Positions 2,084-62,127 are shown, counted from the first letter of the stretch. The stretch: DNA of 64,000 bases from an uncultured virus (IMG/VR IMGVR_UViG_3300034019_000699) (IMGVR_UViG_3300034019_000699); one strand, 5' to 3'. Program-made: numbers and translations. Notes: generated by a model not told the origin, from the sequence alone.

Positions 2084-2608
2084 ATGACCTGTATTGTTGT
2101 TTTAAAGCATGAAGACAAAGTTTATATGGCTGGAGATCGTGGAGCATCAGATGATGGAACCATTCTAGCACTTCAAGCACCAAAGGTTTGGAAGACTGGT
2201 CCCTATTTAATTGGGTATGCAGGATCAATGGACGGAGAAAGAATTCGTCACAACTTTAAACCAACTGCTCCTACTATTAAAGATACAGATAAATTTATGC
2301 ATACAAGATTTGTTAAAGAACTGCGTGACTTTTACAACGAGTTCTGGGTTGACACATCTAAAGAGGGAGACCTTGGTTTAATCATTGCAGTTCGTGGAGA
2401 ACTATACGAACACAGTTCTGGAGATATGTCTTTATCTAAGTACATGCTTCCTTATCTTGCCATGGGTTCTGGATCAGAGTATGCATATGGGGTTCTATAT
2501 GCAACAGATAAGCAAAAAAATGCAAGGAACAGAGTAATGCAAGCAGTAAATGCTGCTATCAAATTTAACCCATCATGTATGGGCCCAGTTGACATTGTCA
2601 GTGCTTAG
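2084..2608 (+). CDS. Ntn-hydrolase, proteasome beta/HslV-like protease
   Basis: Start revised to MTCIV (N-terminal Thr); AGDR, IGYAGS and AMGSGS motifs. Confidence 0.7.
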   Translation: MTCIVVLKHEDKVYMAGDRGASDDGTILALQAPKVWKTGPYLIGYAGSMDGERIRHNFKPTAPTIKDTDKFMHTRFVKELRDFYNEFWVDTSKEGDLGLIIAVRGELYEHSSGDMSLSKYMLPYLAMGSGSEYAYGVLYATDKQKNARNRVMQAVNAAIKFNPSCMGPVDIVSA

Positions 2609-2623
2609 GGGTATAATTATTAT

Positions 2624-26782: not shown

Positions 26783-27106
26783 TTATTCAATCTCACCTTC
26801 GAAATCAATAACTACCTTGCTAACTCGTCCGTCCTCGTTGAGTTGAACATAGACAGGGTAAAGTCCGTCACCATAGCCTGTGTTGAATACAACAGCAGAA
26901 CCGATACCAAGTTCGCCATAAGAATTAGAAATGGTTGTGGCGCAAGCGCCGTGATAAGAATAGTCGCCTTGCTTTCCGTCTAACTCGAATGCTTCTCCGT
27001 CATTGGTATTCCATTGGTCAAGGTAGCAGGGGTCGCCTACCATTGCTTGTCCGCTATCTACCGCAAATGAACCTGCTAATACAAGTTCGTCTAATACATA
27101 CTTCAT
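26783..27106 (-). CDS. DUF4241-like protein
   Basis: VDSGQAMVGDPCY...TGYGDGLYPVY. Confidence 0.7.
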   Translation of the reverse strand: MKYVLDELVLAGSFAVDSGQAMVGDPCYLDQWNTNDGEAFELDGKQGDYSYHGACATTISNSYGELGIGSAVVFNTGYGDGLYPVYVQLNEDGRVSKVVIDFEGEIE

Positions 27107-27558
27107 TGGGTCTCCTTTATTGTTAGTCCTACTAAGGTCATTTCATCAAGTGTAGCACATTCTGTGCATTTTTCCAAATCGTGGTCTTGGAAGGAATCTC
27201 TAATAAGATTATCAGGGTCTTCCAGTTCAGCATGGCAGTTCTCACAGAAGTACCAGTTATAGCCAATACGGATTTGAATGGTAGTGTCAGGTGGGCACGG
27301 TACCTCAGTAATGAAGTATCCTAATCTATTTACAAATCCCCAGCCAGACCAGATATAGGAGCCACCGTCATCGCCATCCCCATACATCCAGATTTTGTCA
27401 GGGGATTGAGATTTAACAAACTCTACCTCATCACCATATGTCTCAAACATAATGCCACCCTCCCCATTATCAAATGAGGCATTTGGGTCTATATGATTAG
27501 TGATTGGTTTGTATGTAGTTAGCCATTCATCAAATTCCATTTCAATAAACTTATCCAT
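27103..27558 (-). CDS. hypothetical protein with C-terminal CxxC pairs
   Basis: FETYG...GFVNRLGYFITE; CENC, CTEC. Confidence 0.65.
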   Translation of the reverse strand: MDKFIEMEFDEWLTTYKPITNHIDPNASFDNGEGGIMFETYGDEVEFVKSQSPDKIWMYGDGDDGGSYIWSGWGFVNRLGYFITEVPCPPDTTIQIRIGYNWYFCENCHAELEDPDNLIRDSFQDHDLEKCTECATLDEMTLVGLTIKETQ

Positions 27559-27823
27559 TTTTCTTAGCCCTATCACTAATAGCAAAGGATAGTTGATATG
27601 TTAGGGCATATACCCATGACAGAGCGTCCATTTGGCCTTCCCAGTATTTACGCTCCATAGAATCCATTGCCTCTTCTGTATATTCTTCTTGCTCAACAGC
27701 GGCATTGTATTCTTTTTCAGCCTCAAGCATGAGGTTCTTAAGTTCACCATGGAGGATGTCTGTGCCTGATTCTCCAAGGTCAATGAGTTTCTGTAGTCGT
27801 GGTTCTAGGTCTGTTGTCATCAT
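27551..27823 (-). CDS. hypothetical acidic protein
   Basis: ATG 6 nt after TATACT of the 27830 promoter. Confidence 0.65.
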   Translation of the reverse strand: MMTTDLEPRLQKLIDLGESGTDILHGELKNLMLEAEKEYNAAVEQEEYTEEAMDSMERKYWEGQMDALSWVYALTYQLSFAISDRAKKNG

Positions 27824-28029
27824 TACTCTAGTATACCCTCGGCCACTGACAAAATGTGGGAGGTGGCAATCATCTGTCCATTTAGAGATATATCCTCTAT
27901 CTCCAAGTCCCAGTATTCATCTGAGTTCATATCTTCAATTAGTATCATTTCAGATTTGAGTTTCTCAGAATCTTGCTCCAGCGATAGGAGGTGCAGTTTC
28001 ATGTATTCTTTAAGTGTGTTTAGGTCCAT
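27823..28029 (-). CDS. hypothetical acidic protein
   Basis: 68-aa ORF coupled to its neighbours. Confidence 0.55.
   Translation of the reverse strand: MDLNTLKEYMKLHLLSLEQDSEKLKSEMILIEDMNSDEYWDLEIEDISLNGQMIATSHILSVAEGILE
27830..27851 (-). promoter_or_regulatory. RecA-NDp/PafBC-type promoter
   Basis: TGTCAG-TGGCCGAGGG-TATACT. Confidence 0.7.
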
Positions 28030-28032
28030 ATA

Positions 28033-28272
28033 TTAATTATAGGGGTTTGAGTTGATTTTTACAACTTGGCGGGGTGTGACTTTAATCACAGGTTCATAGT
28101 CAGGGGTAGGATCCTCATCTACATGTGTAACAGTAGCATCCCATTTGCTTAATAGGATTACATGAGATGATGCATGGCAAATGCAGGCGGGATCAATCTG
28201 AGGCTCAACTGATGCAGTAATCTCTATAAGAGCATCACAGTCAGTACATAGATAAGTAAACTTAGTCCACAT
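28033..28272 (-). CDS. small zinc-ribbon-like protein
   Basis: YLCTDCD...CIC. Confidence 0.55.
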   Translation of the reverse strand: MWTKFTYLCTDCDALIEITASVEPQIDPACICHASSHVILLSKWDATVTHVDEDPTPDYEPVIKVTPRQVVKINSNPYN

Positions 28273-28509
28273 TAGCAGTCCTCACAAGTAGTATCGCCAT
28301 AGGTAATAGATACTCCACAGTCAGAGCACCAGGATTCATCATACATTCCCATTACTCACCCCAATACTTTATAATAGTATTCATAGTCATATGGAGATTA
28401 CAATCGCAATCCCCACCATTCATGTTCTCCATGAATTCAAAGTGCGATAGGTTGTCCTCATAGATTTCTGTTACCAGTTCATCTATGGTGTATGGTTTGT
28501 GGGTTGTGG

Positions 28510-28740
28510 TCATACTGTACAAGACTCCTGACATATGTGATAGGCTTTTAGAGATGATACTGTCAATTCTAACATTTCGTCAGGGTATCTGTCAAGCACC
28601 CAATTAAGTGCTTCACCAGCAGTATTGAAGTCAGAGGCAGTGCTACTTTCTCCATAGCCTTGTATAGTTGCTTCCCAGCAGTCAACGCCACCAGGGGAGC
28701 AGGAGTATTCCATTTCGTATATTTCTACATTTAGGGTCAT
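28510..28740 (-). CDS. hypothetical protein
   Basis: Leaderless behind TTGACA-N17-CATAAT (28747-28775). Confidence 0.6.
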   Translation of the reverse strand: MTLNVEIYEMEYSCSPGGVDCWEATIQGYGESSTASDFNTAGEALNWVLDRYPDEMLELTVSSLKAYHICQESCTV

Positions 28741-28900
28741 GTATTAATTATGACAGGAATCCTGGGAAATGTCAAGTCTATCGTAAAGATTTTTTGGTTT
28801 GATATTTTTGGGGATTTTTAATAGTCTTCGTAAAGATTTTTTAATTTGACATTTTTATGTCCGATATGTCTGAATTGTCCACACGTGCGGATTTTCTTTG

Positions 28901-28976
28901 CGATTCCGATGGGATTTGAACCCACGATCTCTACAGTGACAGTGTAGCGATTTAAACCAGACTAATCTACGGAACC
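28901..28976 (-). tRNA. tRNA-Asp(GTC)
   Basis: GGTTCCG...CTACA-CTGTCAC-TGTAG...GGTTCAAATCC...CGGAATCG. Confidence 0.9.
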
Positions 28977-28983
28977 AAATGGT

Positions 28984-29010
28984 GAGCAGTTTTTATTCTT
29001 ACTCAGGAAT
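28984..29010 (-). ncRNA. pseudoknot motif, copy 3
   Basis: ATTC-CTGAGTAA-GAAT-AAAAAC-TGCTC. Confidence 0.6.
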
Positions 29011-29018
29011 TTTTTTAA

Positions 29019-30035
29019 TTATGCAATCTGCAAAACATTTTGCACAACTTTTAGCAAACGATTCTTTTCTGCATTGATAGCAGGGTCAAATCCGCTTGCG
29101 CTTGCAAGGATAGATTCGTTAGAACCACCACGAGCAGAACGATACCAATCAAGGCGTTCAGTTAGTGCATTGAAAGCACCCCACGCATTACCAGCAATCA
29201 TTCCATTGAATTCGCCAGTGTAGATGTCATTGATAACATCAACCTTGTTTTCCCATTTCTTGAAAGCACCCTTAGAATCTTTTTCAGGCTTAGGGTATGC
29301 AGCAAGAATGATGTTGTTGAAATCTTGTGCGGTGATTTCTTTTTGAATCATAGCGTTAGCCATAACATCAAAAGAGTCCATGTACTTATGGGCAAGACCC
29401 AAAGTTTCACGAGCAACGGCAACCTTACCAGAAGCGGTCTGAGTGTGGCGAATCTTGAAAGATTGCTTGACACCATTCTTTTTCTTAGTAGTGTTTAGTG
29501 CAAGGTTAAGAGTGTTAGCGCATACAACACGAACAGGTGTGATACTTGCTTGAATAGCGATTGAGCCATCGTGTGATGTATTGATAAGTAGATAAGTCTT
29601 GACCTTATCTGCAACACCGCTAGGGTCTAAGATTGTTTCACGCTCTAGTGCTAATGCACCGAATACGACACGACCACCCTTGATTGAACCAGCGGTTTCC
29701 CAACGACCTCCGCCATCGAGAATGTTATCACCGAATGAAAATAAATCTTCATTCTGCATAACATGATAACGCTCACCAACGACACCAAGAATGTCGGTCT
29801 GAGAGTTGTCAGTAGGATTGGTACGCAATACATACTGATAGTTTTTGTCACTTGTTAAGTGTGATGGGGTTTCCAAATCCTCAAGACGAACATTCCAATT
29901 AGAAAGGCTTGCTAGGTCTAGCATTTCTTTTGTTGTTTTTTCCTCTGTGAATACGGTACCCAATCCATGCCAAGCGGGTTCACGAAATGATGCGAATGAA
30001 GCCTTACCATTTTGTGTTTCGATTTCATGTGCCAT
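29019..30035 (-). CDS. DUF932 family protein
   Basis: MAHEIE...PAWHGLG...ETAGSIKGG...NTSHDGS...TPVRVVCANTL...IRHT; AAAAAGGAG SD. Confidence 0.88.
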   Translation of the reverse strand: MAHEIETQNGKASFASFREPAWHGLGTVFTEEKTTKEMLDLASLSNWNVRLEDLETPSHLTSDKNYQYVLRTNPTDNSQTDILGVVGERYHVMQNEDLFSFGDNILDGGGRWETAGSIKGGRVVFGALALERETILDPSGVADKVKTYLLINTSHDGSIAIQASITPVRVVCANTLNLALNTTKKKNGVKQSFKIRHTQTASGKVAVARETLGLAHKYMDSFDVMANAMIQKEITAQDFNNIILAAYPKPEKDSKGAFKKWENKVDVINDIYTGEFNGMIAGNAWGAFNALTERLDWYRSARGGSNESILASASGFDPAINAEKNRLLKVVQNVLQIA

Positions 30036-30066
30036 GAGTTTTCTCCTTTTTTGTTGTTGAATTTTA

Positions 30067-30088
30067 AGTATAGCAGGACGGGCTGACA
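30067..30088 (-). promoter_or_regulatory. RecA-NDp/PafBC-type promoter
   Basis: TGTCAG-CCCGTCCTGC-TATACT. Confidence 0.7.
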
Positions 30089-30113
30089 AATGCAAATCGG
30101 GATAGTTAAACAT

Positions 30114-30196
30114 GGGACAAATTGGACATTCCTTAATGTGATTAAATTCACATGATCGTAAAAGTTATCCACAGACTTATCCACAGGCCCCACGTG
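30114..30196. promoter_or_regulatory. operator block: GGACA-N4-GGACA, CRP-type site, two DnaA boxes, CACGTG
   Basis: TGTGATTAAATTCACA 30137; TTATCCACA 30165 and 30177; CACGTG 30191. Confidence 0.7.
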
Positions 30197-30220
30197 TAAA
30201 TTTTGCGGGAATTAAAAGTT

Positions 30221-30247
30221 GAGCAGTTTTAAAACATGCTCAGGTTT
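30221..30247 (-). ncRNA. pseudoknot motif, copy 4
   Basis: AAAC-CTGAGCAT-GTTT-TAAAAC-TGCTC. Confidence 0.6.
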
Positions 30248-30262
30248 ATTAGTAGCCCCCTA

Positions 30263-30691
30263 CTAAATATCTATACGGTCCACACTGGATGATAACCATG
30301 TGACATCATCTGAATTGTAAGATACAGTATCGAAATCAATATCATGAATTAGATTCTGTGCACTTTCTTCATCTCGTGCATTGACTGTAATTGAATAAAG
30401 AACTGTGACTTCCAATTCAAATTCTTTTGTTAACTCAAATCCGCAAATATCTGCAATTGCTTGTGCAGTCTCTTCTGAAATGGTACCGTCGTCCAAGTTT
30501 TCTAAGGTCCACTCTTGCATTTCATTACGCATACGAGAGCGCTCTGCAGCCTCACCATATGAGCGCTGAGTTACTTTTTGAATGTGCTCTTCAAGTTGTT
30601 GAATGCGTTCTTTGTTTTGTACTAGAGTAGTTTCTAAAAACTCTCGTGTCATATAGTGTGTGTCTGTTGCTACTGTGATTGGTTGGTCCAT
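30263..30691 (-). CDS. hypothetical coiled-coil/acidic protein
   Basis: AGAGG SD; follows the 30723 promoter. Confidence 0.7.
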   Translation of the reverse strand: MDQPITVATDTHYMTREFLETTLVQNKERIQQLEEHIQKVTQRSYGEAAERSRMRNEMQEWTLENLDDGTISEETAQAIADICGFELTKEFELEVTVLYSITVNARDEESAQNLIHDIDFDTVSYNSDDVTWLSSSVDRIDI

Positions 30692-30722
30692 GGGGGCCTC
30701 TTTCTGTTAGTTGGTTAATTCA

Positions 30723-30744
30723 ATTGTACTGGGTGCCACTGACA
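30723..30744 (-). promoter_or_regulatory. RecA-NDp/PafBC-type promoter
   Basis: TGTCAG-TGGCACCCAG-TACAAT. Confidence 0.7.
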
Positions 30745-30765
30745 TTTGTCAAGATCCCTTGCGGG

Positions 30766-30792
30766 GAGTAGTTTATACACATACTCAGGTGT
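30766..30792 (-). ncRNA. pseudoknot motif, copy 5
   Basis: ACAC-CTGAGTAT-GTGT-ATAAAC-TACTC. Confidence 0.6.
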
Positions 30793-30847
30793 CTTATCTC
30801 AGGCATACCTACACATCAAGGCGTAGGGCTTAGCAGAGATAAATTAT

Positions 30848-31273
30848 TTAGAGATAACGAGCAACCGCATTGTAAGTGCTGGTGCTAACTACTTCCTCAT
30901 CTGTCATCTTGAGAATACGAATTGCGTTAGACATTTCATCTACCATCTCGTTGTAGGTGTGTCTGTGGATTTGCTCAAAATTACGCTCAGGTTCAGCAGG
31001 AAAGTTTGTTCCGCTTTCTACCTTGATGTCAAAATCAACATTGAGAGTTTTGTTCCACTCACGATAGTTCGTGCGTAGATTTTCTGCCTTTGAGATTTGA
31101 CTAATAGCATACTTTACTAATTGTTCGTTCCAAGCCTTTTGTGCTTCTTGGAACTTTGCTTCGTTCTCATCTTGTGTTTTGTAGTTAGCCTCTAGTTCTG
31201 CTAACTTAGTTTCTAGTGCGTTGATAACTCTCTGTGTAGGTATCTTTACGCTAATTGCTTTTCCTCTTGCCAT
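30848..31273 (-). CDS. conserved hypothetical coiled-coil protein
   Basis: AAAGGA SD; 141 aa. Confidence 0.7.
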   Translation of the reverse strand: MARGKAISVKIPTQRVINALETKLAELEANYKTQDENEAKFQEAQKAWNEQLVKYAISQISKAENLRTNYREWNKTLNVDFDIKVESGTNFPAEPERNFEQIHRHTYNEMVDEMSNAIRILKMTDEEVVSTSTYNAVARYL

Positions 31274-31314
31274 TGGGTCTGTTTCCTTTTCTTTGTTTTG
31301 TTAGGGGGTTGGTT

Positions 31315-31350
31315 GAGCAGTTTATTTATTATCTCATGCTCAGGAGATAA
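31315..31350 (-). ncRNA. pseudoknot motif, copy 6
   Basis: TTATCTC-CTGAGCAT-GAGATAA-TAAATAAAC-TGCTC. Confidence 0.62.
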
Positions 31351-31358
31351 TTGTCAAA

Positions 31359-31523
31359 CTACTTGGCTGTCCAAGTTGTGTATCGTGGCTTGCCATTTAC
31401 ATCTAACTTGACACGAACATTTCCGTTAGCCTGTGGTGTGATTTCTGTGATGATACCACTTACCTTTGACTTTTGAGTTGTGTAGGTGTCGCCTACTTTG
31501 TAAGTTGCGGTTGCTACTGACAT
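31359..31523 (-). CDS. small basic beta-rich protein (54 aa, absent from the ORF track)
   Basis: MSVATATYKVGDTYTTQKSKVSGII...; GAAGGA SD; TTGACA-N17-CATAAT upstream. Confidence 0.7.
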   Translation of the reverse strand: MSVATATYKVGDTYTTQKSKVSGIITEITPQANGNVRVKLDVNGKPRYTTWTAK

Positions 31524-31621
31524 TTGTTTCCTTCTTTCTGTTAGGGTTTTGCTTACTATCTAATTATGACATTTCTTGGGAAAAATGTCAAGTCTAATTT
31601 GAGATTTCTCAAATAGTGAGA

Positions 31622-31792
31622 TTACTTGCTGGTCTTGACCATAGCCAAACGGCGTGAGCCATTTGCTAGAACTAGACTAACTCTGGTAAGTTTATTAGAC
31701 ATTGGCTCAAAACTAGCAATACGACCTGTAATGCCTGTCTTGCTTGTCGTGAATAAATCACCAATTTGGTATTGGTATCCTCCAAGGGTCAT
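31622..31792 (-). CDS. small basic protein, paralog of 31359-31523 (56 aa, absent from the ORF track)
   Basis: MTLGGYQYQIGDLFTTSKTGITGRI...; same leader TAGATAGTAAGCAAAACCC. Confidence 0.7.
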   Translation of the reverse strand: MTLGGYQYQIGDLFTTSKTGITGRIASFEPMSNKLTRVSLVLANGSRRLAMVKTSK

Positions 31793-32026
31793 TGTTCTGC
31801 CTTTCTGTTGTGGGGTTTTGCTTACTATCTAATTCTAGCAGAAAAATGTCAAAAATACCAATTCAGCGGAGGATTTGGGGTGTGTCCTTAATCACATCTT
31901 AAAGGCGTGTCGTGACTTGACAGATCAAAGATTTTGCCCACGTGCCCTTTCGGGATTACTACTGATACAAAAATAAAATAAATAAAAAAAATGCTAAGAA
32001 CATCCATTGTGTTGAATTCATTTATC

Positions 32027-32749
32027 TCATTTCTTACTCGCAGAAAAAATTATGTCACTCTTAGAGTATACACAAAGTGAGCAAGAAACGCAAGCGCTTC
32101 CATTTGTTGAGATAAGCGGAATTTGTTTATTATTCTCAGGACACTTAGCAGCAGGCTTACCAATCATTTCTTTTACATCTGCTTGACCAATAGCAAAATT
32201 CTTAGCAAGGTATGCCATGCGTACGCCACTATTAATTTTTAGGTCTACTGCGGTTTTTACATTCTCGCTATCTGCAGAAAAGTATAGGCTTAGATTATCA
32301 ATACCCTTGAGCATTAGAGCAGCACTTGCTACACGAGTATAAACCCAAAATTGAATTTCAGGATGATTAAGTATTACATGCTTCCATGCGAATGTGTAGG
32401 TATCGTTAAAAAAGTCTCCGTCCCAATGAATACGGAATAGTTTAGGAGCGTCTTTCTTATTGCAGTCTGCAACAAAATCAACAATCATTTCTTCAAGCAA
32501 TGCTTTCATAGTATCATGGTCTGCGTCTTTAAGCAATGCCCAATTGTGTAATAGATTAGTTTTTACTGCGGGGAATAGTCTTTCGAGTTTTCCTGCGTAG
32601 CATACGCTTTCACATACGCTAGTGGCACCAGGGCACGAGAAAGCCTTTCCAGCAGGTAATCCAAATGTGTTTGCGATACTTGCTTGTTTTCCATTTTTTG
32701 TGACAAGGTTAGCCACCTTCCTATCTTTAGAGCGTTTTAGTTTAGTCAT
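32027..32749 (-). CDS. GP88-like protein (Cys-motif, radical-SAM-like)
   Basis: FGLPAG..SCPGAT..C...CYA; FRIHWDGDF; FWVYTR; C..C..C. Confidence 0.75.
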   Translation of the reverse strand: MTKLKRSKDRKVANLVTKNGKQASIANTFGLPAGKAFSCPGATSVCESVCYAGKLERLFPAVKTNLLHNWALLKDADHDTMKALLEEMIVDFVADCNKKDAPKLFRIHWDGDFFNDTYTFAWKHVILNHPEIQFWVYTRVASAALMLKGIDNLSLYFSADSENVKTAVDLKINSGVRMAYLAKNFAIGQADVKEMIGKPAAKCPENNKQIPLISTNGSACVSCSLCVYSKSDIIFSASKK

Positions 32750-32771
32750 GGGGTTCTACTTTCTTTCTTTA

Positions 32772-32793
32772 ATTATAGCGGAGGGGTCTGACA
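32772..32793 (-). promoter_or_regulatory. RecA-NDp/PafBC-type promoter
   Basis: TGTCAG-ACCCCTCCGC-TATAAT. Confidence 0.7.
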
Positions 32794-32944
32794 ATTTTTT
32801 TCTATTGTAGGTTTTCTTTGACGGAACACTTGAGGCAGCATTAGATCTACGCAACTCCATAAGTCTGCGTAATTCCTCGGGTGTTTTCTTTTGTGTCATA
32901 AACTAATCTTAGCATACATGGGATAAAAATGTCAAATCTTAAAA

Positions 32945-32971
32945 TGTGATAAAGATCACACGACGCACGTG
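32945..32971. promoter_or_regulatory. CRP-type palindrome and CACGTG upstream of a TTGACA promoter
   Basis: TGTGATAAAGATCACA 32945; CACGTG 32966. Confidence 0.65.
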
Positions 32972-33010
32972 GGCATTTTTATGCGGGGAAGTGCATAAAA
33001 ATACTTTTAG

Positions 33011-33253
33011 TTATTCTATTGTTTCAATAAAAACATACAACGGAATTAAATCAGTGTAAGAATAATTGGCAAAGTCTAATTCATCAAATTCATTCTTAGT
33101 CTGAATACTCCAATTATCTGCAGTTGAATCACTTTCAATAAACATAACTTCAACAATGTCATCACCGACTTTAATTAAATCGCCAATCATTAATTGATCT
33201 GGCTTGAGTTCATCTGCAAAGATTAGTTCCATGCTATTTATTGTATCAGACAT
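33011..33253 (-). CDS. hypothetical acidic protein
   Basis: GGAGG SD. Confidence 0.6.
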   Translation of the reverse strand: MSDTINSMELIFADELKPDQLMIGDLIKVGDDIVEVMFIESDSTADNWSIQTKNEFDELDFANYSYTDLIPLYVFIETIE

Positions 33254-33471
33254 TTTACTTTCCTCCTACTTTTCCGTCACGATAAAAAATCTTGGTGTGC
33301 ATTTTGCCATTAGGCTCTGAAAAATTGTAGGTTGCATAGTCATCTGCAAATCCCCAATCCACAATTTTATTCCACTCGGTCACTGCGCTAATTGCGTCTG
33401 AATAACGACCAACCCAATGAGGTGAAGTATCATTATCATAGGTTGCAGTAATTGCGTATGAGTATTCCATT

Positions 33472-33768
33472 TTAGTATTCCCTTTCAATAAGCCACGCAT
33501 TTAGGTGGTGTTGTTCAATTATTGCATAAGCGGGGGCAGTAGTCAAACCCTTATAGGTTATTCCTTCGGGCATAGGTATTTCCAAGTCCCATAGTCCTGC
33601 GTCATTTACTGCGTCAATAGCCTCAATACATACCGATACCATAGACTTAGGCACTGGCGGGTAGTGATTAGCAGATAAGTGAATACCTATCTGAGTTTCT
33701 AAATCAAGATGAATACCAAGATTATCAAGTGTTCCGTCTGCCATTTCTGTTGCAAAATTACTTCCCAT
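33472..33768 (-). CDS. hypothetical protein
   Basis: HLSANHYPPVP...IIEQHHLNAWL. Confidence 0.65.
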   Translation of the reverse strand: MGSNFATEMADGTLDNLGIHLDLETQIGIHLSANHYPPVPKSMVSVCIEAIDAVNDAGLWDLEIPMPEGITYKGLTTAPAYAIIEQHHLNAWLIEREY

Positions 33769-34001
33769 TATCGTGCTTCTCCGCTCATTAGTAGTTCAGG
33801 CTCACTTAGTAGCCCATTATCCCAAATAACACTTCCGTCATAGTCTAATAGTAATTCGTAGGGATTACACTCGCAAGTTTCTGAGTCAAAATCCTCGCCA
33901 TTTCCCCAATACAAATTACCTTGACCATTACAAGCATTACAATTCTGTATCGCTCTTAGTGCGTATTCTAATTTATCCATTTTTTCCTTCTTTCTGTTCA
34001 T
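33768..34001 (-). CDS. small zinc-finger protein (CxxCxGxG...CxC)
   Basis: CNACNGQG...TCECN. Confidence 0.6.
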   Translation of the reverse strand: MNRKKEKMDKLEYALRAIQNCNACNGQGNLYWGNGEDFDSETCECNPYELLLDYDGSVIWDNGLLSEPELLMSGEAR

Positions 34002-34007
34002 ACTGAA

Positions 34008-34029
34008 ATCCTATCAGATAGGGCTGACA
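34008..34029 (-). promoter_or_regulatory. RecA-NDp/PafBC-type promoter
   Basis: TGTCAG-CCCTATCTGA-TAGGAT. Confidence 0.7.
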
Positions 34030-34050
34030 TTTTCAACCCTACCCAACCAC

Positions 34051-34548
34051 TCACCAAGACGAATGGTACGAAAAGGACAAATTGGACAATTCGGGTAGAG
34101 CAAGAATACGCTCTAATTGTTCAATAGTATTCTCTAGGTCACGCCAATACCATTGATCGATATCTGTTCCACCAAAGAAAAATCCTTCTTGTGGTGGCAA
34201 TAGGCTAGGGTCTTTATTTTCTAAAGAGTGCTTACAAATCGCAAGCAATTCTATTAATTTATCTTGTGATACATAGTAGTCACCGCAGTCGTCAATTCCT
34301 TTTTGTACATTTTTGACAAACCAATTATGAATCTGATTAGCCTTGCGCCAATAAGCACAAGTCACTTCTACGCTTGCGCCATAGATATCTGTTGCGACAT
34401 TGGATAATTGTGTTAATTCCATTAGGTTGTTGAATTGCGGATATACCGCTTCAGGTGAGTCATAAGATAATTCGTCATTATCTCTTAGTGCGTTCCAATT
34501 CACTTTTTCCAAGTGTTTCTTGGCTAGTAAGTACATATCTAATCCCAT
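34051..34548 (-). CDS. conserved phage protein (MGLDMY...YWRKANQIHNWF)
   Basis: Motifs typical of a widespread uncharacterised phage family; GAAGG SD. Confidence 0.75.
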   Translation of the reverse strand: MGLDMYLLAKKHLEKVNWNALRDNDELSYDSPEAVYPQFNNLMELTQLSNVATDIYGASVEVTCAYWRKANQIHNWFVKNVQKGIDDCGDYYVSQDKLIELLAICKHSLENKDPSLLPPQEGFFFGGTDIDQWYWRDLENTIEQLERILALPELSNLSFSYHSSW

Positions 34549-34576
34549 TGGATTACCTTCTTTCTTTTAGGCTTCT

Positions 34577-34687
34577 AGCCTATCATTTCCTACTGACAAA
34601 ATCAAACCGACACGCCGTAAAATCTGGGGGAATATTAAAATGTGTCGTAAATCACCCTGTGTATAACCCTGTGGATAACCCCACGTG
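34577..34687 (-). promoter_or_regulatory. PafBC-type promoter plus operator block
   Basis: TGTCAG-TAGGAAATGA-TAGGCT 34577-34598; CGACACGCC 34608; CRP-like 34641; DnaA boxes 34658 and 34670; CACGTG 34682. Confidence 0.72.
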
Positions 34688-34695
34688 AAATTTTT

Positions 34696-34722
34696 GAGCA
34701 GTTTTAGATCATGCTCAGGATT
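34696..34722 (-). ncRNA. pseudoknot motif, copy 7
   Basis: ATC-CTGAGCAT-GAT-CTAAAAC-TGCTC. Confidence 0.6.
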
Positions 34723-34826
34723 TGAAAACTAGAATCCGTTTTCTTTTATGTCTTTAATTGCTAATCGCAATAAATAAAATGTTGAAATTAGCAAAGCAAG
34801 TTGCACAAGTGTTGTTAAAAATCTGC

Positions 34827-35027
34827 TCACGCATTTACCTCAATTCCTTTATAGCAAGCAAGAGCAAATCTATTTGCGTCAAATCTTGGATTATCAGTTT
34901 CAAACATTAGAGAAAATTCATCTACCAAATCAGCAAATAAAATTTCTCCTTGCTCATCAAAAACAGAAGTAGCAAAGTAATTGCTAAGAATTTCAGCAGT
35001 TGCGACATAGTCTTTTCGTGTCATCAT
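34827..35027 (-). CDS. hypothetical protein (TRKDY...DNPRFD..RF family)
   Basis: Similar motif at the C-terminus of 60971-61426 (SKEDY...DNWRFNADRF). Confidence 0.65.
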   Translation of the reverse strand: MMTRKDYVATAEILSNYFATSVFDEQGEILFADLVDEFSLMFETDNPRFDANRFALACYKGIEVNA

Positions 35028-35115
35028 TTATGAGCACACTCGCTTTCTATTTCGTGTCCAAATTCATCTACTAATTCCTCGTAGATTTCGTCTAAGTATT
35101 CTAAGTAATCGCTCA

Positions 35116-35322
35116 TTATTCAGCCACCTTTAGAGTAGCCCAAGAATTGCCCTTATTGACTTCATCAAGGACAGGACCGAGAGCAGGCGCAAGCAAATCT
35201 TTTAGCATACTTTCAAGAAAGTGAATTTGAATTTCACTATCTAATTCTAATAGTTGCTTAGCAGTTGGATTATTTTCATCTACCTCAGTTATGAAGTGGA
35301 GAGAGTGTTTAATTGTTTTCAT
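35116..35322 (-). CDS. hypothetical protein
   Basis: AGGA SD. Confidence 0.6.
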   Translation of the reverse strand: MKTIKHSLHFITEVDENNPTAKQLLELDSEIQIHFLESMLKDLLAPALGPVLDEVNKGNSWATLKVAE

Positions 35323-35341
35323 TTATTTTATTTCCTATTCT

Positions 35342-35533
35342 TTAATTTGAGGGGATAAGTGTGCCACGAAGTGTGCCACGAATTGAGAGAGTGTCGCAAG
35401 ACATTTTGACCGCAACGCCTACTGGTAATTGAGTAGGATAAGTTGAGATAAATTGAGCAACCGCACCTTTAGAGGGCAGGCTAATTTTTTTAGTAGAACC
35501 ATTAAAGGTTTCTAGTGTTATAGTGTAAGTCAT
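35342..35533 (-). CDS. hypothetical protein, paralog of 37793-37984
   Basis: TITLETFNGSTK...LPVGVAV; AAAGGAAG SD. Confidence 0.65.
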   Translation of the reverse strand: MTYTITLETFNGSTKKISLPSKGAVAQFISTYPTQLPVGVAVKMSCDTLSIRGTLRGTLIPSN

Positions 35534-35565
35534 TTTGACTTCCTTTCGTTTTTAGGTATAAGACT

Positions 35566-35587
35566 ATCTTATACTATGGGGCTGACA
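35566..35587 (-). promoter_or_regulatory. RecA-NDp/PafBC-type promoter
   Basis: TGTCAG-CCCCATAGTA-TAAGAT. Confidence 0.7.
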
Positions 35588-35588
35588 A

Positions 35589-35801
35589 TTAGTCTGCGTT
35601 TTTTACCGCTAGATAGCGATAGGTATCCTTTAGGTTAAATATTGAGGGATAGTGTGGGCGAACCTGAACCCGATAAGTATCACAATTAGCATACCAAACC
35701 TTATCGGTTTTTTCTGCGTCGATTATTTCGCCATTTATTGAGCGAGAATTGTAAGTCTTGCCAATTAGCAGACTTTCTACATTATAGACATTTGCTGACA
35801 T
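35589..35801 (-). CDS. hypothetical protein, paralog of 36458-36658
   Basis: YNVESLLIGKTY..RS..NGEI. Confidence 0.65.
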   Translation of the reverse strand: MSANVYNVESLLIGKTYNSRSINGEIIDAEKTDKVWYANCDTYRVQVRPHYPSIFNLKDTYRYLAVKNAD

Positions 35802-35832
35802 AGTGTCACTTCCTTTTTTTCTTTAGATAGTA

Positions 35833-36053
35833 AGTATAGCATTTTTGGCTGACATTATCAAATCCAAATTCGGACATTTCCGACATTTTGAATGTGATAC
35901 TCATCACACCGATTTTGCTATTTATTTAATTGTATAAGAGAATACTACCAGATAAATCTCAAAAAGTCAAGGCGACACGCCGTAAATGCGAGATTTATTT
36001 ATGTGACCTTAAACACATTTTGCTTGTGGATAACCTGTGGATAAGTGCACGTG
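35833..36053 (-). promoter_or_regulatory. PafBC-type promoter plus double operator block
   Basis: TGTCAG-CCAAAAATGC-TATACT 35833-35854; GGACA-N4-CGACA about 35872; CRP-type 35893 and 36002; CGACACGCC 35973; DnaA boxes 36025 and 36036; CACGTG 36048. Confidence 0.72.
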
Positions 36054-36269
36054 CAAAATTTGCAAAGTTTTTCTCTGCAATTTTGTTTTTATTTATTTTA
36101 TTTCTTTACACTTAAGTAGTCGCTAATATTTACATACACAATGTATGCAACATAGGCTAATACTGAAACAAAAATAATTTTCATTTATGATCTCCAATTT
36201 CATCTAGCAATTCCCAAAGTATTGGCTCTAATTCTTTAGCAACCAAATCTAATTTATCTTGTAAGTTTT

Positions 36270-36458
36270 TCATAGTGGCAAAATCTCTTTTCCATAGTAT
36301 CCAACTGCTTCAACTAAGTTAATTACACTTTTGTATTCATTACAATTAAAGCAAATTCTATTTTCTTTATTCATAGTGGTTGAGCAATAAACGCAGATAT
36401 TATCTTGAAGGTTAAATCCTAACGCTTCAATTTCATTAAGGGACATAGATATTTTCAT
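36270..36458 (-). CDS. small zinc-ribbon protein
   Basis: CVYC...CFNC. Confidence 0.55.
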   Translation of the reverse strand: MKISMSLNEIEALGFNLQDNICVYCSTTMNKENRICFNCNEYKSVINLVEAVGYYGKEILPL

Positions 36459-36658
36459 TAGTTATCCTCAACCTTCACGCTAATAGTAGCCCAATTATTG
36501 CCATTAAAGCGAATAGCAAAAGCCTTATAGCCTTCGGGAGTATAGACATCGCTTCTCTCAGTAGAGTAGTTAATTTCACCATTAAGGTGTTTTCTCACAA
36601 GAGAGCGAGGATAGTATTGCTGACCATAGAGCAGGTCATTTATTGAATAAGTTTTCAT
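36458..36658 (-). CDS. hypothetical protein
   Basis: GAAAGG SD; follows the 36692 promoter. Confidence 0.65.
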   Translation of the reverse strand: MKTYSINDLLYGQQYYPRSLVRKHLNGEINYSTERSDVYTPEGYKAFAIRFNGNNWATISVKVEDN

Positions 36659-36691
36659 TTAAGTTATTACCTTTCTTTTCTTTACTTAGTA

Positions 36692-36713
36692 AGTCTATCA
36701 GAAGCCTCTGACA
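36692..36713 (-). promoter_or_regulatory. RecA-NDp/PafBC-type promoter
   Basis: TGTCAG-AGGCTTCTGA-TAGACT. Confidence 0.7.
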
Positions 36714-36857
36714 TTTCCTTACACTTATTAGGGTTATCCCACCAAGGGAAGCCCTCATGGTAGGTAGCAGGGGCAAGGACTACCTGACCGCAAGGGCATA
36801 GGTTCATCATGCCTTTAGGGTAGTCGTGTATAGTAGCGAACCTATTCCAAATACTCA

Positions 36858-37064
36858 TTAGTTAGCAACCTGACAAGAACCGCTAAGAGATTTCCAAGCA
36901 GACCAACCGCTAAGGCGGTCTGGGTCTTCTACCCAATAAGAGGTTATGTCTAATTCGCAATTAGAGCAAGTCGCATAGCGGTCATACTCATCACTTACGA
37001 TAGATGATTTAATTGCTTCGTGTGTAGAGAAGCCTAGTTTTTTTAGTAGTGTTTGTTCGTTCAT
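36858..37064 (-). CDS. small Cys/Trp protein, paralog of 37476-37655
   Basis: CSNCELDITSYWVEDPDRLSGWSAW. Confidence 0.65.
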   Translation of the reverse strand: MNEQTLLKKLGFSTHEAIKSSIVSDEYDRYATCSNCELDITSYWVEDPDRLSGWSAWKSLSGSCQVAN

Positions 37065-37098
37065 TTTAGAACCAACCTTTCTTTTTCTTTATGTAGCA

Positions 37099-37120
37099 AG
37101 TCTAGCAGAGGGGTCTGACA
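37099..37120 (-). promoter_or_regulatory. RecA-NDp/PafBC-type promoter
   Basis: TGTCAG-ACCCCTCTGC-TAGACT. Confidence 0.7.
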
Positions 37121-37130
37121 AATCGGGGCA

Positions 37131-37184
37131 TTTATTCGCTAGGCTCACTGTGATTTATCTCACATTTATTTGCTAGGCTCACTG
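37131..37184. repeat. 20-bp direct repeat flanking a CRP-type palindrome
   Basis: TTTATTCGCTAGGCTCACTG (37131) and TTTATTTGCTAGGCTCACTG (37165). Confidence 0.8.
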
Positions 37185-37221
37185 CCCGATTTATCCCTTA
37201 TTTAGTTTTTCTTACTCCGTA

Positions 37222-37427
37222 AGTCTAACATAAAAATCTCAAAAAAGCAAATCGACACGCCGTACTACAAGTGTGTTTCTTATCACATTAGTTATCAACA
37301 GCCTGTGGATAAGTCCACGTGTGACACGTGCAAATTCGGACATTATGGACATGTGATTAGTATCACAAAAATAGTTTTCCGACACGCCCGAGAAACAGGT
37401 CAAAATGTCAGTGGTCTGTGTTAGACT
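37222..37427. promoter_or_regulatory. divergent control hub between the two early arms
   Basis: CGACACGCC 37253 and 37380; CRP-type 37272 and 37352; DnaA boxes 37292 (1 mismatch) and 37304; CACGTG 37316 and 37325; GGACA-N4-GGACA 37338; + strand TGTCAG-TGGTCTGTGT-TAGACT 37406-37427. Confidence 0.72.
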
Positions 37428-37475: not shown

Positions 37476-37655
37476 ATGACTACACTAACAATAACAAAAT
37501 GCGTAGAGCATAAGCCTATGCTATCCGCTATCTCCAATGTAGGAGATGAGCAATTCACTTTCTGTATGGATTGTGAAAATAACATAGAGCGTTGGTATAA
37601 CGATACCGACCCTGAAAGACTACCAATGTGGTCAGATTGGAGTGTATCTCTATGA
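37476..37655 (+). CDS. small Cys/Trp protein (59 aa, absent from the ORF track)
   Basis: GAAAGGTGG SD; CMDCENNIERWYNDTDPERLPMWSDW. Confidence 0.7.
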   Translation: MTTLTITKCVEHKPMLSAISNVGDEQFTFCMDCENNIERWYNDTDPERLPMWSDWSVSL

Positions 37656-58090: not shown

Positions 58091-58804
58091 ATGACAATTT
58101 ATGATGAAAATGAAACTCCATGGTTTACTAAAGATAGATCAGAAACATCACTAAATAGGTATTCATCAAGGAATATCGGCAACAACATCTTAGTTGAAAA
58201 TCCAGCCCTAGGAATTAATTTATACAGAAATGTATTTTCAAAAGAAGATTCTGAAAGATATATTAAAATTCTTGAATCTAATTTAGGCGGTAATGGTAAA
58301 TACAAATGGTCAGAGGCAAAAGTAACCAACTCTGATGTTCCAATTAAAAAGGCTAGAGATGCTGTAGACTTTAGATTTAAGCAAGAAAACTTAGGTCCAA
58401 GAGACGAACACAATGCTGAACTTTTAGACTTACATGAAGAAATATATCAAAAGTTAAAGTTTTGCGTTGATGATTATGCACGGTATTGGGGAATAAATGT
58501 CATATACTATGAAGCCTTTAACTTTGTAAAATATGAAGGAGAAGGAACACACTTCAATATTCATGCAGACCATGGACCAATGTATAACTGTACAGTGTCT
58601 GCCGTTGTCTATATAAATGAAGATTACGAGGGGGGAGAGATTAGGTTTCCGAGAATGGATAACTACACTCATACTCCAAAAATAGGAGACATTGTTCTTT
58701 GTCCATCTAACTATATTTATGAGCATGCATCTTTGCCAATGAAAGAAGGAACTAAATATTGTGTTGTCGTAATGACAGACATTAATGAACTGGGACACAA
58801 GTAG
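58091..58804 (+). CDS. 2OG-Fe(II) oxygenase
   Basis: HADHG...YINEDYEGGEI...HAS. Confidence 0.88.
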   Translation: MTIYDENETPWFTKDRSETSLNRYSSRNIGNNILVENPALGINLYRNVFSKEDSERYIKILESNLGGNGKYKWSEAKVTNSDVPIKKARDAVDFRFKQENLGPRDEHNAELLDLHEEIYQKLKFCVDDYARYWGINVIYYEAFNFVKYEGEGTHFNIHADHGPMYNCTVSAVVYINEDYEGGEIRFPRMDNYTHTPKIGDIVLCPSNYIYEHASLPMKEGTKYCVVVMTDINELGHK

Positions 58805-59571
58805 TGTCTTTAGTTGCAAAGTTTACAGCATTCAGGCCTTGGATAAACAAAGAGGATATCTCTGTTCCTGTTCCTACACAAAAAGAAATACCAGACTGGT
58901 ATAAGGATGCAGATAGATTTGCAAAAATGCCAAACGGAGAATACTATAAAGCAACAAAAGAGGTTTGTCCATTTCCCAAAGAAGGAACAACAGATGACTA
59001 TGGAAAGATCCCAACATGGAAAGCGTGTCCTGCAATTATGGATGCGTTTGCGACAGGATATGTATTTAAAACTCCTTGTGATCTAACATTTGCTAAAAAT
59101 TCTCAGGGAATAATTAATGTAACAATTAATGACCCTAAGTATAAAGACTTTTGTACTCAAAGACCTCCAATGCCACAATTCGAACATCCAAAAGGATACT
59201 ACCAACACCATTTTGCCTGGAGTTCTCCGTGGGGCCTAGAACTTCCAGAAGGATATAGTGCATTATTTATGACTCCAATGAACAGGTTTGATCTTCCATT
59301 TTTAAATACAACTGGAATTGTTGACTCTGACAAAGTTCATCTTCTTGGAAGTTTTCCATTTTTTATTGCAGATGGTTGGGAAGGCACTATTCCAGCAGGA
59401 ACCCCATATTTGCAAGTCCTTCCATTTAAAAGAGAAAATTGGGATCATGATATAGAGATTTCAGATCAATCTTCTATATATGGTAAAATGGTAGATAACG
59501 CAAAGTTCTATCGTCAACCTGACGGGGGCGTATATATTAAAAAAGTTTGGTCACGCAGAGAGTATAAATAG
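58804..59571 (+). CDS. conserved phage protein (TWKACPA family)
   Basis: Paralog of 20587-21393. Confidence 0.7.
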   Translation: MSLVAKFTAFRPWINKEDISVPVPTQKEIPDWYKDADRFAKMPNGEYYKATKEVCPFPKEGTTDDYGKIPTWKACPAIMDAFATGYVFKTPCDLTFAKNSQGIINVTINDPKYKDFCTQRPPMPQFEHPKGYYQHHFAWSSPWGLELPEGYSALFMTPMNRFDLPFLNTTGIVDSDKVHLLGSFPFFIADGWEGTIPAGTPYLQVLPFKRENWDHDIEISDQSSIYGKMVDNAKFYRQPDGGVYIKKVWSRREYK

Positions 59572-59580
59572 GAGATACAA

Positions 59581-60264
59581 ATGCAAACATGGACAGATAA
59601 AGAAAGTCTTGGAAATGGAATAACCTGTTATAGAGGGGTTATTAAAAAAGAGTTTGATGTAGTCAATAGGCTTGAAAATACTTTAGGTTCTGTTGCTGGG
59701 TACGGAGAGTTGTCTACAGAAGGTAAAAGATATCACTGGATGCCAGCATATGTTGGTTATCAACAACTTATGCCAGACTACAGAGACTGTGTAGATTTTA
59801 AATTTAAAAAAACAGACATTGAACAAGATAAAAGTGAAGAGTCTTTAAAGTTGCAGTCTCTTTGGCAGGACATCTATGATGCACAATCTGCAGCAGTAGA
59901 GGACTACAGACGAGACTACAACATTATGCCACTTAAATATTGGGAAGCCTTTAATTTTATTAAATATGGTCCAGGCCAACACTTTAAAGAGCATCATGAT
60001 CATGGATACTCCTACAACTGTACTGTTTCGTTGGTCGCTTATGTAAATGATGACTATGAGGGTGGAGAGTTATTTTTTAGACTACAGGGTTTAAACATTA
60101 AGCCAAAGGCTGGAGATCTTTACATCTTCCCATCTAACTTTATGTATCCTCATCAGGCTATGCCAGTTCATTCTGGAACTAAATACTCTATTGTTACCAT
60201 GCTTGACTATAGTAAAAAGTATCATACGCCAGACATGTATGATCCTAAATGGGATAATGAATAG
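59581..60264 (+). CDS. 2OG-Fe(II) oxygenase
   Basis: HHDHG...YVNDDYEGGEL...HQA. Confidence 0.88.
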   Translation: MQTWTDKESLGNGITCYRGVIKKEFDVVNRLENTLGSVAGYGELSTEGKRYHWMPAYVGYQQLMPDYRDCVDFKFKKTDIEQDKSEESLKLQSLWQDIYDAQSAAVEDYRRDYNIMPLKYWEAFNFIKYGPGQHFKEHHDHGYSYNCTVSLVAYVNDDYEGGELFFRLQGLNIKPKAGDLYIFPSNFMYPHQAMPVHSGTKYSIVTMLDYSKKYHTPDMYDPKWDNE

Positions 60265-60974
60265 TGTATAACATAATAGTTGAAAAAATGCCAGGGTGTA
60301 TTTTTGAAATAAATCCAATGTCAATAAAAAGAGATTGGATGGATGCTACATCAGAAAACCATGCTTATAGATGTTTCCCAGTAACGCAAGCAAATGTCGT
60401 TGGCTACAGTCTTTCTTGTAAAGAGGATATTGAGTTTATTTGGGACGGGATAAACGATCAAACTCAAGATCATGTAACAATATTTAATCCAGAAAGATCA
60501 TATTCTGGAAGAGGTCAGTCATCAGTAAGCCTAGACACAGGGTTAATATTTAGAACTATAGAAGAACTCAGCATCCTCACTATAAATCCAGTAAATTATT
60601 TTAATGATGAGTTTGAAACGATGTCATCCTTAATAAGTACTTCTTTTTATGACAACCCCTTGCCGTTAGCAATTAAAGCAAGGTTTGCAAATAAAAGGGT
60701 AACAATTAAGGCTGGAACTCCAGTAGCAACAATAATACCAATATCCTTAACAGGCTTAAACAATACTGAAATTAATATTATAAAGTATCAAGATAATGAC
60801 AAAAAAAGAGAGCAAGCAAACAGGTCTTATGGAGAGGCTGCACAAGTTCTTAATTCTTCGGGAGAATGGACAGACTGGTATAGAAACGCTGTAAATGAAA
60901 AACAAGAATCTCTGGGCTCTCATGAAACAAAAACTTTAAAACTCATTGTAAAAGATAGTTCTGGTGAGTTATGA
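60264..60974 (+). CDS. DUF6065-like protein
   Basis: RDWMD....HAYRCFP..AN..G. Confidence 0.65.
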   Translation: MYNIIVEKMPGCIFEINPMSIKRDWMDATSENHAYRCFPVTQANVVGYSLSCKEDIEFIWDGINDQTQDHVTIFNPERSYSGRGQSSVSLDTGLIFRTIEELSILTINPVNYFNDEFETMSSLISTSFYDNPLPLAIKARFANKRVTIKAGTPVATIIPISLTGLNNTEINIIKYQDNDKKREQANRSYGEAAQVLNSSGEWTDWYRNAVNEKQESLGSHETKTLKLIVKDSSGEL

Positions 60975-61426
60975 GTGAACTAAATCCAACACATGAAGAT
61001 ATAGTAAGCGAATATATAAAAAATGCCAAAGAAGGAAAGGTTGGCCATTACATGATAACAGTTGCTAGAGATGGGGAGTCTCCAGTACGGTCTATAATAT
61101 CATTTGACAACATAGACGAGGCATTTAAAGGTTACTCAATGTATGAAGATGCTGGGTTTGCAAAAGATTATCTTACAGTTTCCCTATATCAGCCATCAGG
61201 AATAGTCACTACAAAAGTTTTAAAAAGAAATCATGCTGGAGATCCTTCGTTTGTTAGGCAAAATTATATTGATACGGTTGAAGCCTTGCACTCTGTTAAA
61301 CATAAGTTAAGCAAAGAAGACTACGAAGAGATGTGTATTAAAATTGTTACCTCATTTGCAAAAGACAACTGGAGATTTAATGCAGACAGGTTTTTAAAAC
61401 AACTAGAAATAGAAAGGACATTGTAG
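60971..61426 (+). CDS. hypothetical protein
   Basis: ATGA overlap; DNWRFNADRF C-terminus. Confidence 0.65.
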   Translation: MSELNPTHEDIVSEYIKNAKEGKVGHYMITVARDGESPVRSIISFDNIDEAFKGYSMYEDAGFAKDYLTVSLYQPSGIVTTKVLKRNHAGDPSFVRQNYIDTVEALHSVKHKLSKEDYEEMCIKIVTSFAKDNWRFNADRFLKQLEIERTL

Positions 61427-61452
61427 GATAAACCCTATGATATAATCTTATT

Positions 61453-62127
61453 ATGGACAAAGAAAAAGCCACTGTTGTAGTTAGAAAGCCATCGATAACC
61501 CCGTCTGGCTGGTTTGGCGATAGTAAAGATATGATCGTAGAGTTAGAAAACTTTATGACACAAGAAGAGATTGAGTTTTTAGAAAAGGCTGCAAAGTCTT
61601 TAACTATTTGGGATGTAACAGAAAGCCATGTAAACGAAAATGGAACTGTTGTTTATGATTCAGAATACTGGAAAGACAGAGTTGCAACCAGTCCAACACT
61701 TAACAAAAATGATCCATCAATTGCTCCAGTAATCGCAGGACTTTTTGAAAGGTTAAAGCCTATAGTAGAAGATTTTTATAAAGTAAAGGTTATCCCTACT
61801 GGAACAACAATTGTAAAATGGCTTCCAGGACAATTTCAAAAACCGCATGCAGACAAAGAGTTGCACGAAGGCCCAGATGCTGGCCTACCAAATGATTTTC
61901 CAAACTATGATCTTTCAAGTTTGTTTTATTTAAACGATGACTACGAAGGTGGAGAACTATACTTTCCACTGCAAGAAGTGCAGTTTAAACCTAAAAAAGG
62001 CGCTGCATACTTTTTCCCAGGTGACAAGAACTATATCCACGGGGTAACAGAAATTAAAAGTGGTTTAAGATTTACCTGTCCTTTCTTTTGGGAAATTACA
62101 GAGCATACAGGAGATCGAAAGCCATGA
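61453..62127 (+). CDS. 2OG-Fe(II) oxygenase
   Basis: PHADKE...YLNDDYEGGELYF...HGV...R. Confidence 0.9.
   Translation: MDKEKATVVVRKPSITPSGWFGDSKDMIVELENFMTQEEIEFLEKAAKSLTIWDVTESHVNENGTVVYDSEYWKDRVATSPTLNKNDPSIAPVIAGLFERLKPIVEDFYKVKVIPTGTTIVKWLPGQFQKPHADKELHEGPDAGLPNDFPNYDLSSLFYLNDDYEGGELYFPLQEVQFKPKKGAAYFFPGDKNYIHGVTEIKSGLRFTCPFFWEITEHTGDRKP

Follow-up and report, generated by a model that had tools for sequence, protein, structure and literature searches.

A predicted PafBC-type promoter class in the small-gene arm of an uncultured, lytic-looking actinophage

In Mycobacterium and other Actinobacteria, promoters of the PafBC (RecA-NDp) type are described (PMC8635444) as 22-nucleotide (nt) elements of the form TGTC(A/G)G-N10-TAnnnT, in which an invariant GTC triplet is read by residues R46 and R50 of PafB, the box lies at about -28 to -23 and a strong -35 is lacking. 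The in vivo consensus given there is tGTCgg(N10)tA(N3)T, with the upstream part at -23 to -28 and no -35, and the authors liken the mechanism to that of MotA/AsiA of phage T4. Here, we analyse a 64,000-nt stretch of the uncultured lake virus IMGVR_UViG_3300034019_000699 (hereafter the window), in which small genes stand behind copies of the 22-nt motif TGTCAG-N10-TAnnnT. The geometry of this motif equals the published PafBC layout exactly, including the 10-nt spacing, which agrees with the class assignment made in a preliminary description of this DNA. Judging from sequence, we consider it somewhat probable (roughly 60%) that eleven of these sites represent promoters of PafBC type that the phage has borrowed from its host, and that they drive the arm of small genes in a lytic-looking actinophage of ~110 kb.

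The likeness to PafBC promoters extends to the recA gene of the candidate host order, which bears the same box as the phage. The phage sites differ, however, in forming arrays of about a dozen, in lacking a LexA operator, in having a stronger extended -10, and in that their predicted PafBC binding would serve small genes of unknown function rather than repair genes. In the middle promoters of T4 (a MotA box at -30 plus a -10), an upstream box approximately 11-13 nt from the -10 likewise replaces the -35, with an adaptor on sigma region 4 (see PMC8635444). The T4 adaptor is phage-encoded, whereas here none was found and the box equals that of a host regulon. Coliphage 186, through tum, and the Bacillus phage GIL01 tie phage genes to the host SOS repressor LexA. 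In these phages, as proposed here, phage expression is coupled to a host DNA-damage signal through the site of a host regulator; theirs, however, is a repressor site for prophage induction, whereas the present element is of activator type and occurs in a phage in which no integrase was found. BrxR and CapW are reportedly WYL repressors of defence islands. They share with our proposal a WYL-domain, single-stranded DNA (ssDNA)-sensing control that is tied to phage infection, but they are repressors encoded next to their own system, whereas here the phage would copy the promoter type of a global activator. The terminal-repeat arm of the Streptomyces cluster BE phages (Samisti12, Stanwilliamsviridae) resembles the window in its DUF932 protein (51-53% identity) and in its leftward array of small genes with their own promoters ending in TGnTAGACT; in contrast, the BE promoters have a -35 TAGACA with an 18-nt spacer, and a single TGTCRG-N10 match occurs in 50 kb. 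In Samisti12 (L087, 900-9700), gTAGACA-N18-TGcTAGACT precedes nearly every small gene, with a GC-rich hairpin as well as a GGCCCGGACA-like word upstream of each.

A pattern search of the window returned 14 matches to TGTCAG-N10-TAnnnT, compared with a mean of 0.87 in 100 dinucleotide-preserving shuffles (maximum 4; none of the 100 reached 14). All eleven sites of the preliminary description are present at the coordinates and on the strands that it gave, while three further matches, at 2596, 35779 and 63853, had been overlooked. Its other claims concerning the layout of the sites are borne out. The 10-nt spacing is specific, since a scan of spacers N6 to N15 (0, 0, 2, 1, 14, 0, 0, 0, 0 and 2 matches) peaks at N10 alone; the hexamer TGTCAG by itself is not enriched in the window (41 versus 33.7 expected). 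Each of the eleven sites is directed at a downstream gene, the start codon of which lies 6-50 nt past the -10, with a purine-rich ribosome-binding site in most cases. The sites are not recent duplicates, because identity outside the two boxes averages only 36% (range 20-53%, 55 pairs of the 11 sites). Six of the eleven possess a TGn before the -10, and a search of the window for the LexA box TCGAAC-N4-GTTCGA gave no match at up to two mismatches.

With the exception of the last one, the eleven sites lie on the minus strand. The first, TGTCAGtggccgagggTATACT (27830-27851), is leaderless, as the ATG of gene 27551-27823 begins 6 nt past the -10. The promoter of the DUF932 gene (30067-30088) is exact in 72 of 80 orthologous upstream regions, and a further five carry TGTCGG. 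This gene starts at 30035, behind AAGGAG and 31 nt past the -10, so that the longest open reading frame (ORF), 29019-30113, begins 26 codons too early; its start at 30113 is an over-extension, inside which the promoter falls. The site at 30723-30744, with TTGACA 2 nt upstream, serves gene 30263-30691 (142 amino acids (aa), acidic) and is kept in 56/63 orthologues, and that of the GP88-family gene 32027-32749 (32772-32793) in 39/62. At 34008-34029 (5/12 orthologues), upstream of the unit 33768-34001, 33472-33768, 33255-33500 and 33011-33253, the ATG of 33768-34001 lies 6 nt past the -10 and is possibly a second leaderless start; its status is ambiguous, since an in-frame ATG with a ribosome-binding site follows seven codons later. 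The motif is also kept at the promoters of gene 34051-34548 (34577-34598; 11/12 orthologues), of the unit 35342-35533, 35116-35322 and 34827-35027 (35566-35587; 50/55), of gene 35589-35801 (35833-35854; 53/54) and of the unit 36458-36658 and 36270-36458 (36692-36713; 4/4). A divergent hub completes the series: its leftward promoter (37099-37120; 4/4 orthologues) precedes 36858-37064 and 36682-36858, and its rightward promoter on the plus strand (37406-37427; 25/37) precedes 37476-37655 and the subsequent small genes. Among the additional matches, 35779-35800 (minus strand) covers the start codon of 35589-35801 and is probably a coding coincidence rather than a promoter, and 63853-63874 (minus strand), antisense to the local plus-strand genes, is probably due to chance. 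The third, 2596-2617 (plus strand), is embedded in a promoter of perfect consensus (TTGACA-17-TATAAT), the -10 of which is followed at 6 nt by the ATG of a leaderless ORF (2624-2806); the homologous loci of four out of four complete relatives lack the motif.

Conservation in related contigs provides the second line of evidence. Across 80 loci around DUF932 (1.29 Mb), 555 copies of the motif lie on the strand of the DUF932 gene versus 50 on the opposite strand. Other spacers gave 2-158 matches in these loci, the highest count being that of N16, which is compatible with a second TAnnnT directly following the -10, as in the DUF932 promoter. When orthologous upstream regions were picked by the downstream protein alone, ignoring the motif, the sets kept the exact motif in 72/80, 56/63, 53/54, 50/55, 39/62, 32/53, 11/12 and 5/12 cases. 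The eight misses among the DUF932 regions comprise five TGTCGG, which corresponds to the published R position, one TGTCAC and two TGTTAG, such that TGTC is kept in 78 of 80 and is TGTT in two. In the complete relative G004, 14 of 15 matches (13 of them unique) fall inside one small-gene block of ~10.5 kb, with one in the other 100 kb. Drawn as a logo, the 384 unique sites give the consensus A-W-W-TGTCAG-t-(C/G)(C/G)...a-T-G-n-TAnAaT-T; the -35 positions of the logo carry at most 0.25 bit, with T at 0.45-0.49 at two positions. In a control, the N11-spaced pattern gave only single matches in viral contigs, and none of the 80 control loci held the N10 motif.

The window belongs to a phage of ~110 kb that encodes WhiB. 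It has a GC content of ~37% and three tRNAs, and Pfam families recognised in it include WhiB, a CHAP lysin, an SLT lysozyme, cement and Mtd-type tail proteins, endonuclease VII, DUF932 and GP88. Relatives of its DUF932 protein (85-100% identity) are encoded by 404 viral contigs of up to 118 kb. Genes for DnaB, primase, Pol III alpha, RecA, class II ribonucleotide reductase, portal and protease are present in the complete relative G004 (111,870 bp with a 99-bp overlap of its ends), and a family scan of its 114 ORFs returned neither an integrase nor a sigma factor, nor any WYL or HTH family. Among cultured phages, DUF932 homologues (566 records) belong chiefly to phages of Mycobacterium (219), Streptomyces (116), Microbacterium (55) and Arthrobacter (50). 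No near-identical DNA was found in the cultured-phage collection. Gene content, this overwhelming actinophage distribution and the lack of an integrase together indicate an actinophage in which no lysogeny gene was found. The promoters are held by a block of 26 mostly small genes (26783-37064, minus strand; 54-338 aa), 16 of which encode proteins with an isoelectric point (pI) below 5.5; apart from DUF932, GP88, DUF4241 and a handful of PHROGs without known function, none of its proteins is recognised. By analogy, these genes may be early-type, as the preliminary description called them, on the basis of gene size and of synteny with the terminal-repeat arm of the Streptomyces BE phages only.

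As regards the host, contigs of the phage family were binned in five GTDB metagenome-assembled genomes (MAGs), assigned to Nitrososphaera, Beijerinckiaceae, Bacteroidia and, in two cases, Actinomycetota. Both Actinomycetota MAGs fall in the same order, of which 31 genomes were sampled (1.2-2.2 Mb, many of them single-contig). Ca. Nanopelagicales are described as streamlined and low in GC (PMC10202952), and we infer that the candidate order fits this group. An atlas look-up of host taxa with the phage glutathione peroxidase was uninformative. WYL genes occur in 31 of 31 genomes of the candidate order and tandem ORFs of 300-350 aa in 30 of 31. In genome G016, the first ORF of the pair aligns along its entire length with the M. 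smegmatis PafB chain (7p5x/9fnd; E 4e-39) and retains the motif RMFERDK with R46 and R50, while the second is PafC-like (E 9e-22; Pfam HTH_PafC, WYL and WCX) and is followed by tatC; the DNA-reading arginines were checked in this one PafB-PafC pair. The expectation that the host possesses pafBC thus holds for the candidate order, whereas naming that host Ca. Nanopelagicales relies on two of the five MAG bins.

The recA loci of the candidate order carry TGTC[AG]G-N10-TAnnnT in 26 of 30 cases (23 with A, three with G), typically as TTGTCAGTGGCGCCTGCTACCTT. In 24 of these 26 promoters (loci L099-L124), a LexA-like TCGAACAnnTGTTCG begins directly past the -10. Because the LexA-like box abuts the -10, the host site is a damage promoter, and since a PafBC-type box is joined to a LexA-like operator, activation and repression would overlap on it. 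Other host genes behind the box encode DUF6504, a DEDDh exonuclease, CarD, DNA methylases, a trypsin-like peptidase and TPR proteins; DUF6504 and the DEDDh exonuclease are preceded by it in two genomes each. An ORF of at least 70 aa starts 6-7 nt past the -10 at 16 of 52 unique host sites, versus 108 of 3335 TAnnnT in the same DNA. Furthermore, phage and host boxes have flank preferences in common (W at -1, t at +6, G/C at +7 and T after the -10).

A further observation concerns one 36-kb island of genome G016 (C1:436001-472000; L199, L200), which contains 8 of the 11 TGTCAG-N10-TAnnnT sites of that genome. Its genes encode ParDE, Fic, a DndB-like protein, a DrmD-like SNF2 helicase (PADLOC E 2e-127), a GmrSD/HEC-06 type IV enzyme, two C5 methylases and HNH. 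Of the island sites, at least three precede leaderless genes, and comparable clusters occur at 386-470 kb in three other genomes. The candidate host seems to place defence genes on PafBC-type promoters.

A reader encoded by the phage itself, the alternative that the preliminary description had raised, was found neither by family scans of the window and of complete relatives nor by modelling two proteins. No WYL protein is present in five out of five complete relatives, and no Pfam or PHROGs family for sigma, HTH, MotA or AsiA was found among 120 window ORFs and 114 ORFs of G004, where small unknown proteins remain; the only regulator families seen in the phage are WhiB and an FmdB-like zinc ribbon. 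The two conserved proteins that were folded gave confident models (pLDDT 83 and 86, the latter for the beta-barrel). The model of g30848 suggests a long helix plus a small domain, and the AlphaFold model of g31359/g31622 a small four-strand beta-barrel with weak SH3/Tudor-like neighbours only. For neither g30848 nor g31359 was there a PDB match at E<=0.001.

The block also contains a second, canonical promoter class without TGTCAG (TTGACA/TTGTAA-N17/18-(TGn)-10), for which seven minus-strand sites are found within 28036-32935, in the same block as the PafBC-type promoters: 28036-28064, 28566-28595, 28747-28775, 31328-31357, 31563-31591, 31824-31852 and 32906-32935. Palindromes of the form GTGA-N6-TCAC, resembling CRP/GlxR sites, occur at 28076, 30138, 32946, 35894, 37150 and 37353 (overall 28076-37366); all six (0.77 expected) lie in the small-gene block. 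Four PafBC-type promoters have the centre of such a palindrome 64.5, 74.5, 74.5 and 84.5 nt ahead of their assumed starts, and for two canonical promoters the distance calculated from coordinates is 53.5 nt upstream.

Under our preferred reading, the phage sites would be hybrid promoters: next to a SigA-type -10 (TAnnnT, usually extended by TGn), a TGTCAG box at about -28 to -23 takes the place of a good -35. Actinobacterial RNA polymerase would read such promoters only through "sigma adaptation", with the ssDNA-loaded WYL heterodimer PafBC placed between the DNA and sigma region 4. PafBC would be constantly present in the host, and ssDNA could arise from processing of the phage DNA ends, from phage replication and recombination, from nuclease attack or from outside damage. 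PafBC would then turn on or boost the phage units together with host recA, repair and defence-island genes, while the extended -10 probably supplies a basal level without it. Of the wiring to a host sensor that the preliminary description proposed, the geometry, the conservation in the family, the pafBC genes and matching recA box of the candidate order and the failure to find a phage reader all stand, whereas PafBC as the reader, early timing, a trigger by incoming DNA and the identity of the host do not follow from them; we infer the binder, trigger, timing and host.

Several observations weigh against this interpretation. MAG binning is weak host evidence because three of the five bins are non-actinobacterial, and the DNA shared between the phage and the candidate order is tRNA-like only (75-88% identity); the few other shared stretches consist of contigs of MAG G007, which are probably binned phage contigs, and one 46-base match in G035. 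Five genomes of the host order total 48 boxes, barely more than the 30 of a reversed-pattern control (5-14 versus 4-9 per genome). PafBC requires single-stranded DNA, and an injected double-stranded genome need not provide any. The idea of TGTCAG as an order-specific promoter dialect that would serve as a host marker was rejected, as 5 of 25 recA loci across the phylum also carry TGTCAG. Further adverse points are given with the alternatives below.

The alternative that survives best, though we regard it as doubtful, is that a phage-encoded activator binds TGTCAG and bridges to sigma region 4 in the manner of MotA/AsiA, in which case these sites would form a middle class timed by the phage. 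Expression of the activator itself would come from the canonical promoters of the block, a class that could express such a factor first, and the likeness to the PafBC box would reflect convergence or deliberate mimicry. A family-specific phage factor fits equally well with the distribution of the arrays, because the viral scan revealed them in this phage family only: 67 of 80 viral loci retrieved with the strict pattern are homologous, the other 13 have one or two sites each, and the cultured DUF932 phages Samisti12 and Nigel have no arrays. Moreover, most block proteins have no known family. However, the scans of the window and of the complete relative described above revealed no HTH, WYL, sigma, MotA or AsiA family, the folded g30848 and g31359/g31622 have no structural match at the threshold applied, and an identical box with the same flank preferences precedes recA in the candidate order, a setting without any phage.

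Less probable still is the suggestion that these are plain SigA promoters without a link to DNA damage, in which TGTCAG is a family-specific, strength-tuning spacer or the site of some other host protein. Such promoters may fire without PafBC, since the extended -10 is common (about two thirds of the 384 unique sites; T 0.64, G 0.68), a weak T-T occurs at the -35 and TTGAnn, a -35-like hexamer, lies 1-2 nt upstream of TGTCAG in about 6 of 12 window sites. Orthologous genes also exchange PafBC-type and canonical (TTGACA-17/18) promoters freely among relatives: upstream of g30848, 29 of 71 are PafBC-type, and upstream of g31359, 24 are PafBC-type versus 25 canonical out of 67. Nevertheless, an invariant hexamer at a single fixed spacing is unexpected for a spacer, and the box equals that of the damage-regulated, LexA-operator-bearing recA promoter of the candidate hosts. 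It is also rare in host genomes and therefore not a general host promoter form. That the boxes serve mainly as a sink, by which replicating copies draw PafBC and polymerase away from host repair and defence-island promoters with small-gene transcription secondary, is very improbable: 12 sites in 10 kb of phage compare with 5-14 per whole host-order genome, and host sites cluster in a defence island, but every phage site is placed to drive a gene through a ribosome-binding site or a leaderless start, which a sink would not need.

As an extension of the reading in which PafBC is the activator, we tentatively suggest, at a low level of confidence, that phage and host contend over one alarm. Sensing of ssDNA would arm host defences and also the takeover or counter-defence genes of the phage, the replicating array would compete for limited PafBC, and the host activator would serve as the phage's "MotA", a timer that neither of the two encodes to that end.

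Other features of the window are noted here. Genes 31359-31523 and 31622-31792 encode paralogous basic proteins (54 and 56 aa; pI 9.9 and 10.6) and have similar canonical promoters and leaders. Small shares of the window are contained in eight RNA runs, of which the four that were compared are Logan contigs without starts, strands or levels; contigs over 30840-31990 are the deepest in two RNA-library runs of different studies, a contig depth that cannot rank genes. Outside the block, a gene for an HslV/proteasome-like peptidase lies at 2045-2608 (Pfam Proteasome E 2e-5; PHROG "peptidase HslV family" E 4e-24) and is also present in G004. At least 13 paralogues of 2-oxoglutarate (2OG)-Fe(II) oxygenase are distributed across 4724-63739, seven of them consecutive at 58091-63739, and the window also encodes two glutathione-peroxidase-like genes, a carbamoyltransferase and HSP20.

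Phages are known to sense host DNA damage via the LexA repressor and to retarget sigma with adaptors of their own. If the PafBC reading is correct, a third route would exist, in which a lytic-looking phage family takes over the promoter type of a WYL activator with which the host senses ssDNA. A full-text literature search found no report of phage promoters of the PafBC type, and PMC12848934 cites a 2025 paper on pafBC and mycobacteriophage resistance. PafBC itself would gain a role in infection, and the motif would serve as an inexpensive computational marker of the hosts of uncultured actinophages. Some two dozen small proteins would, moreover, be produced at the very time of the host alarm, which would make them good candidates for counter-defence.

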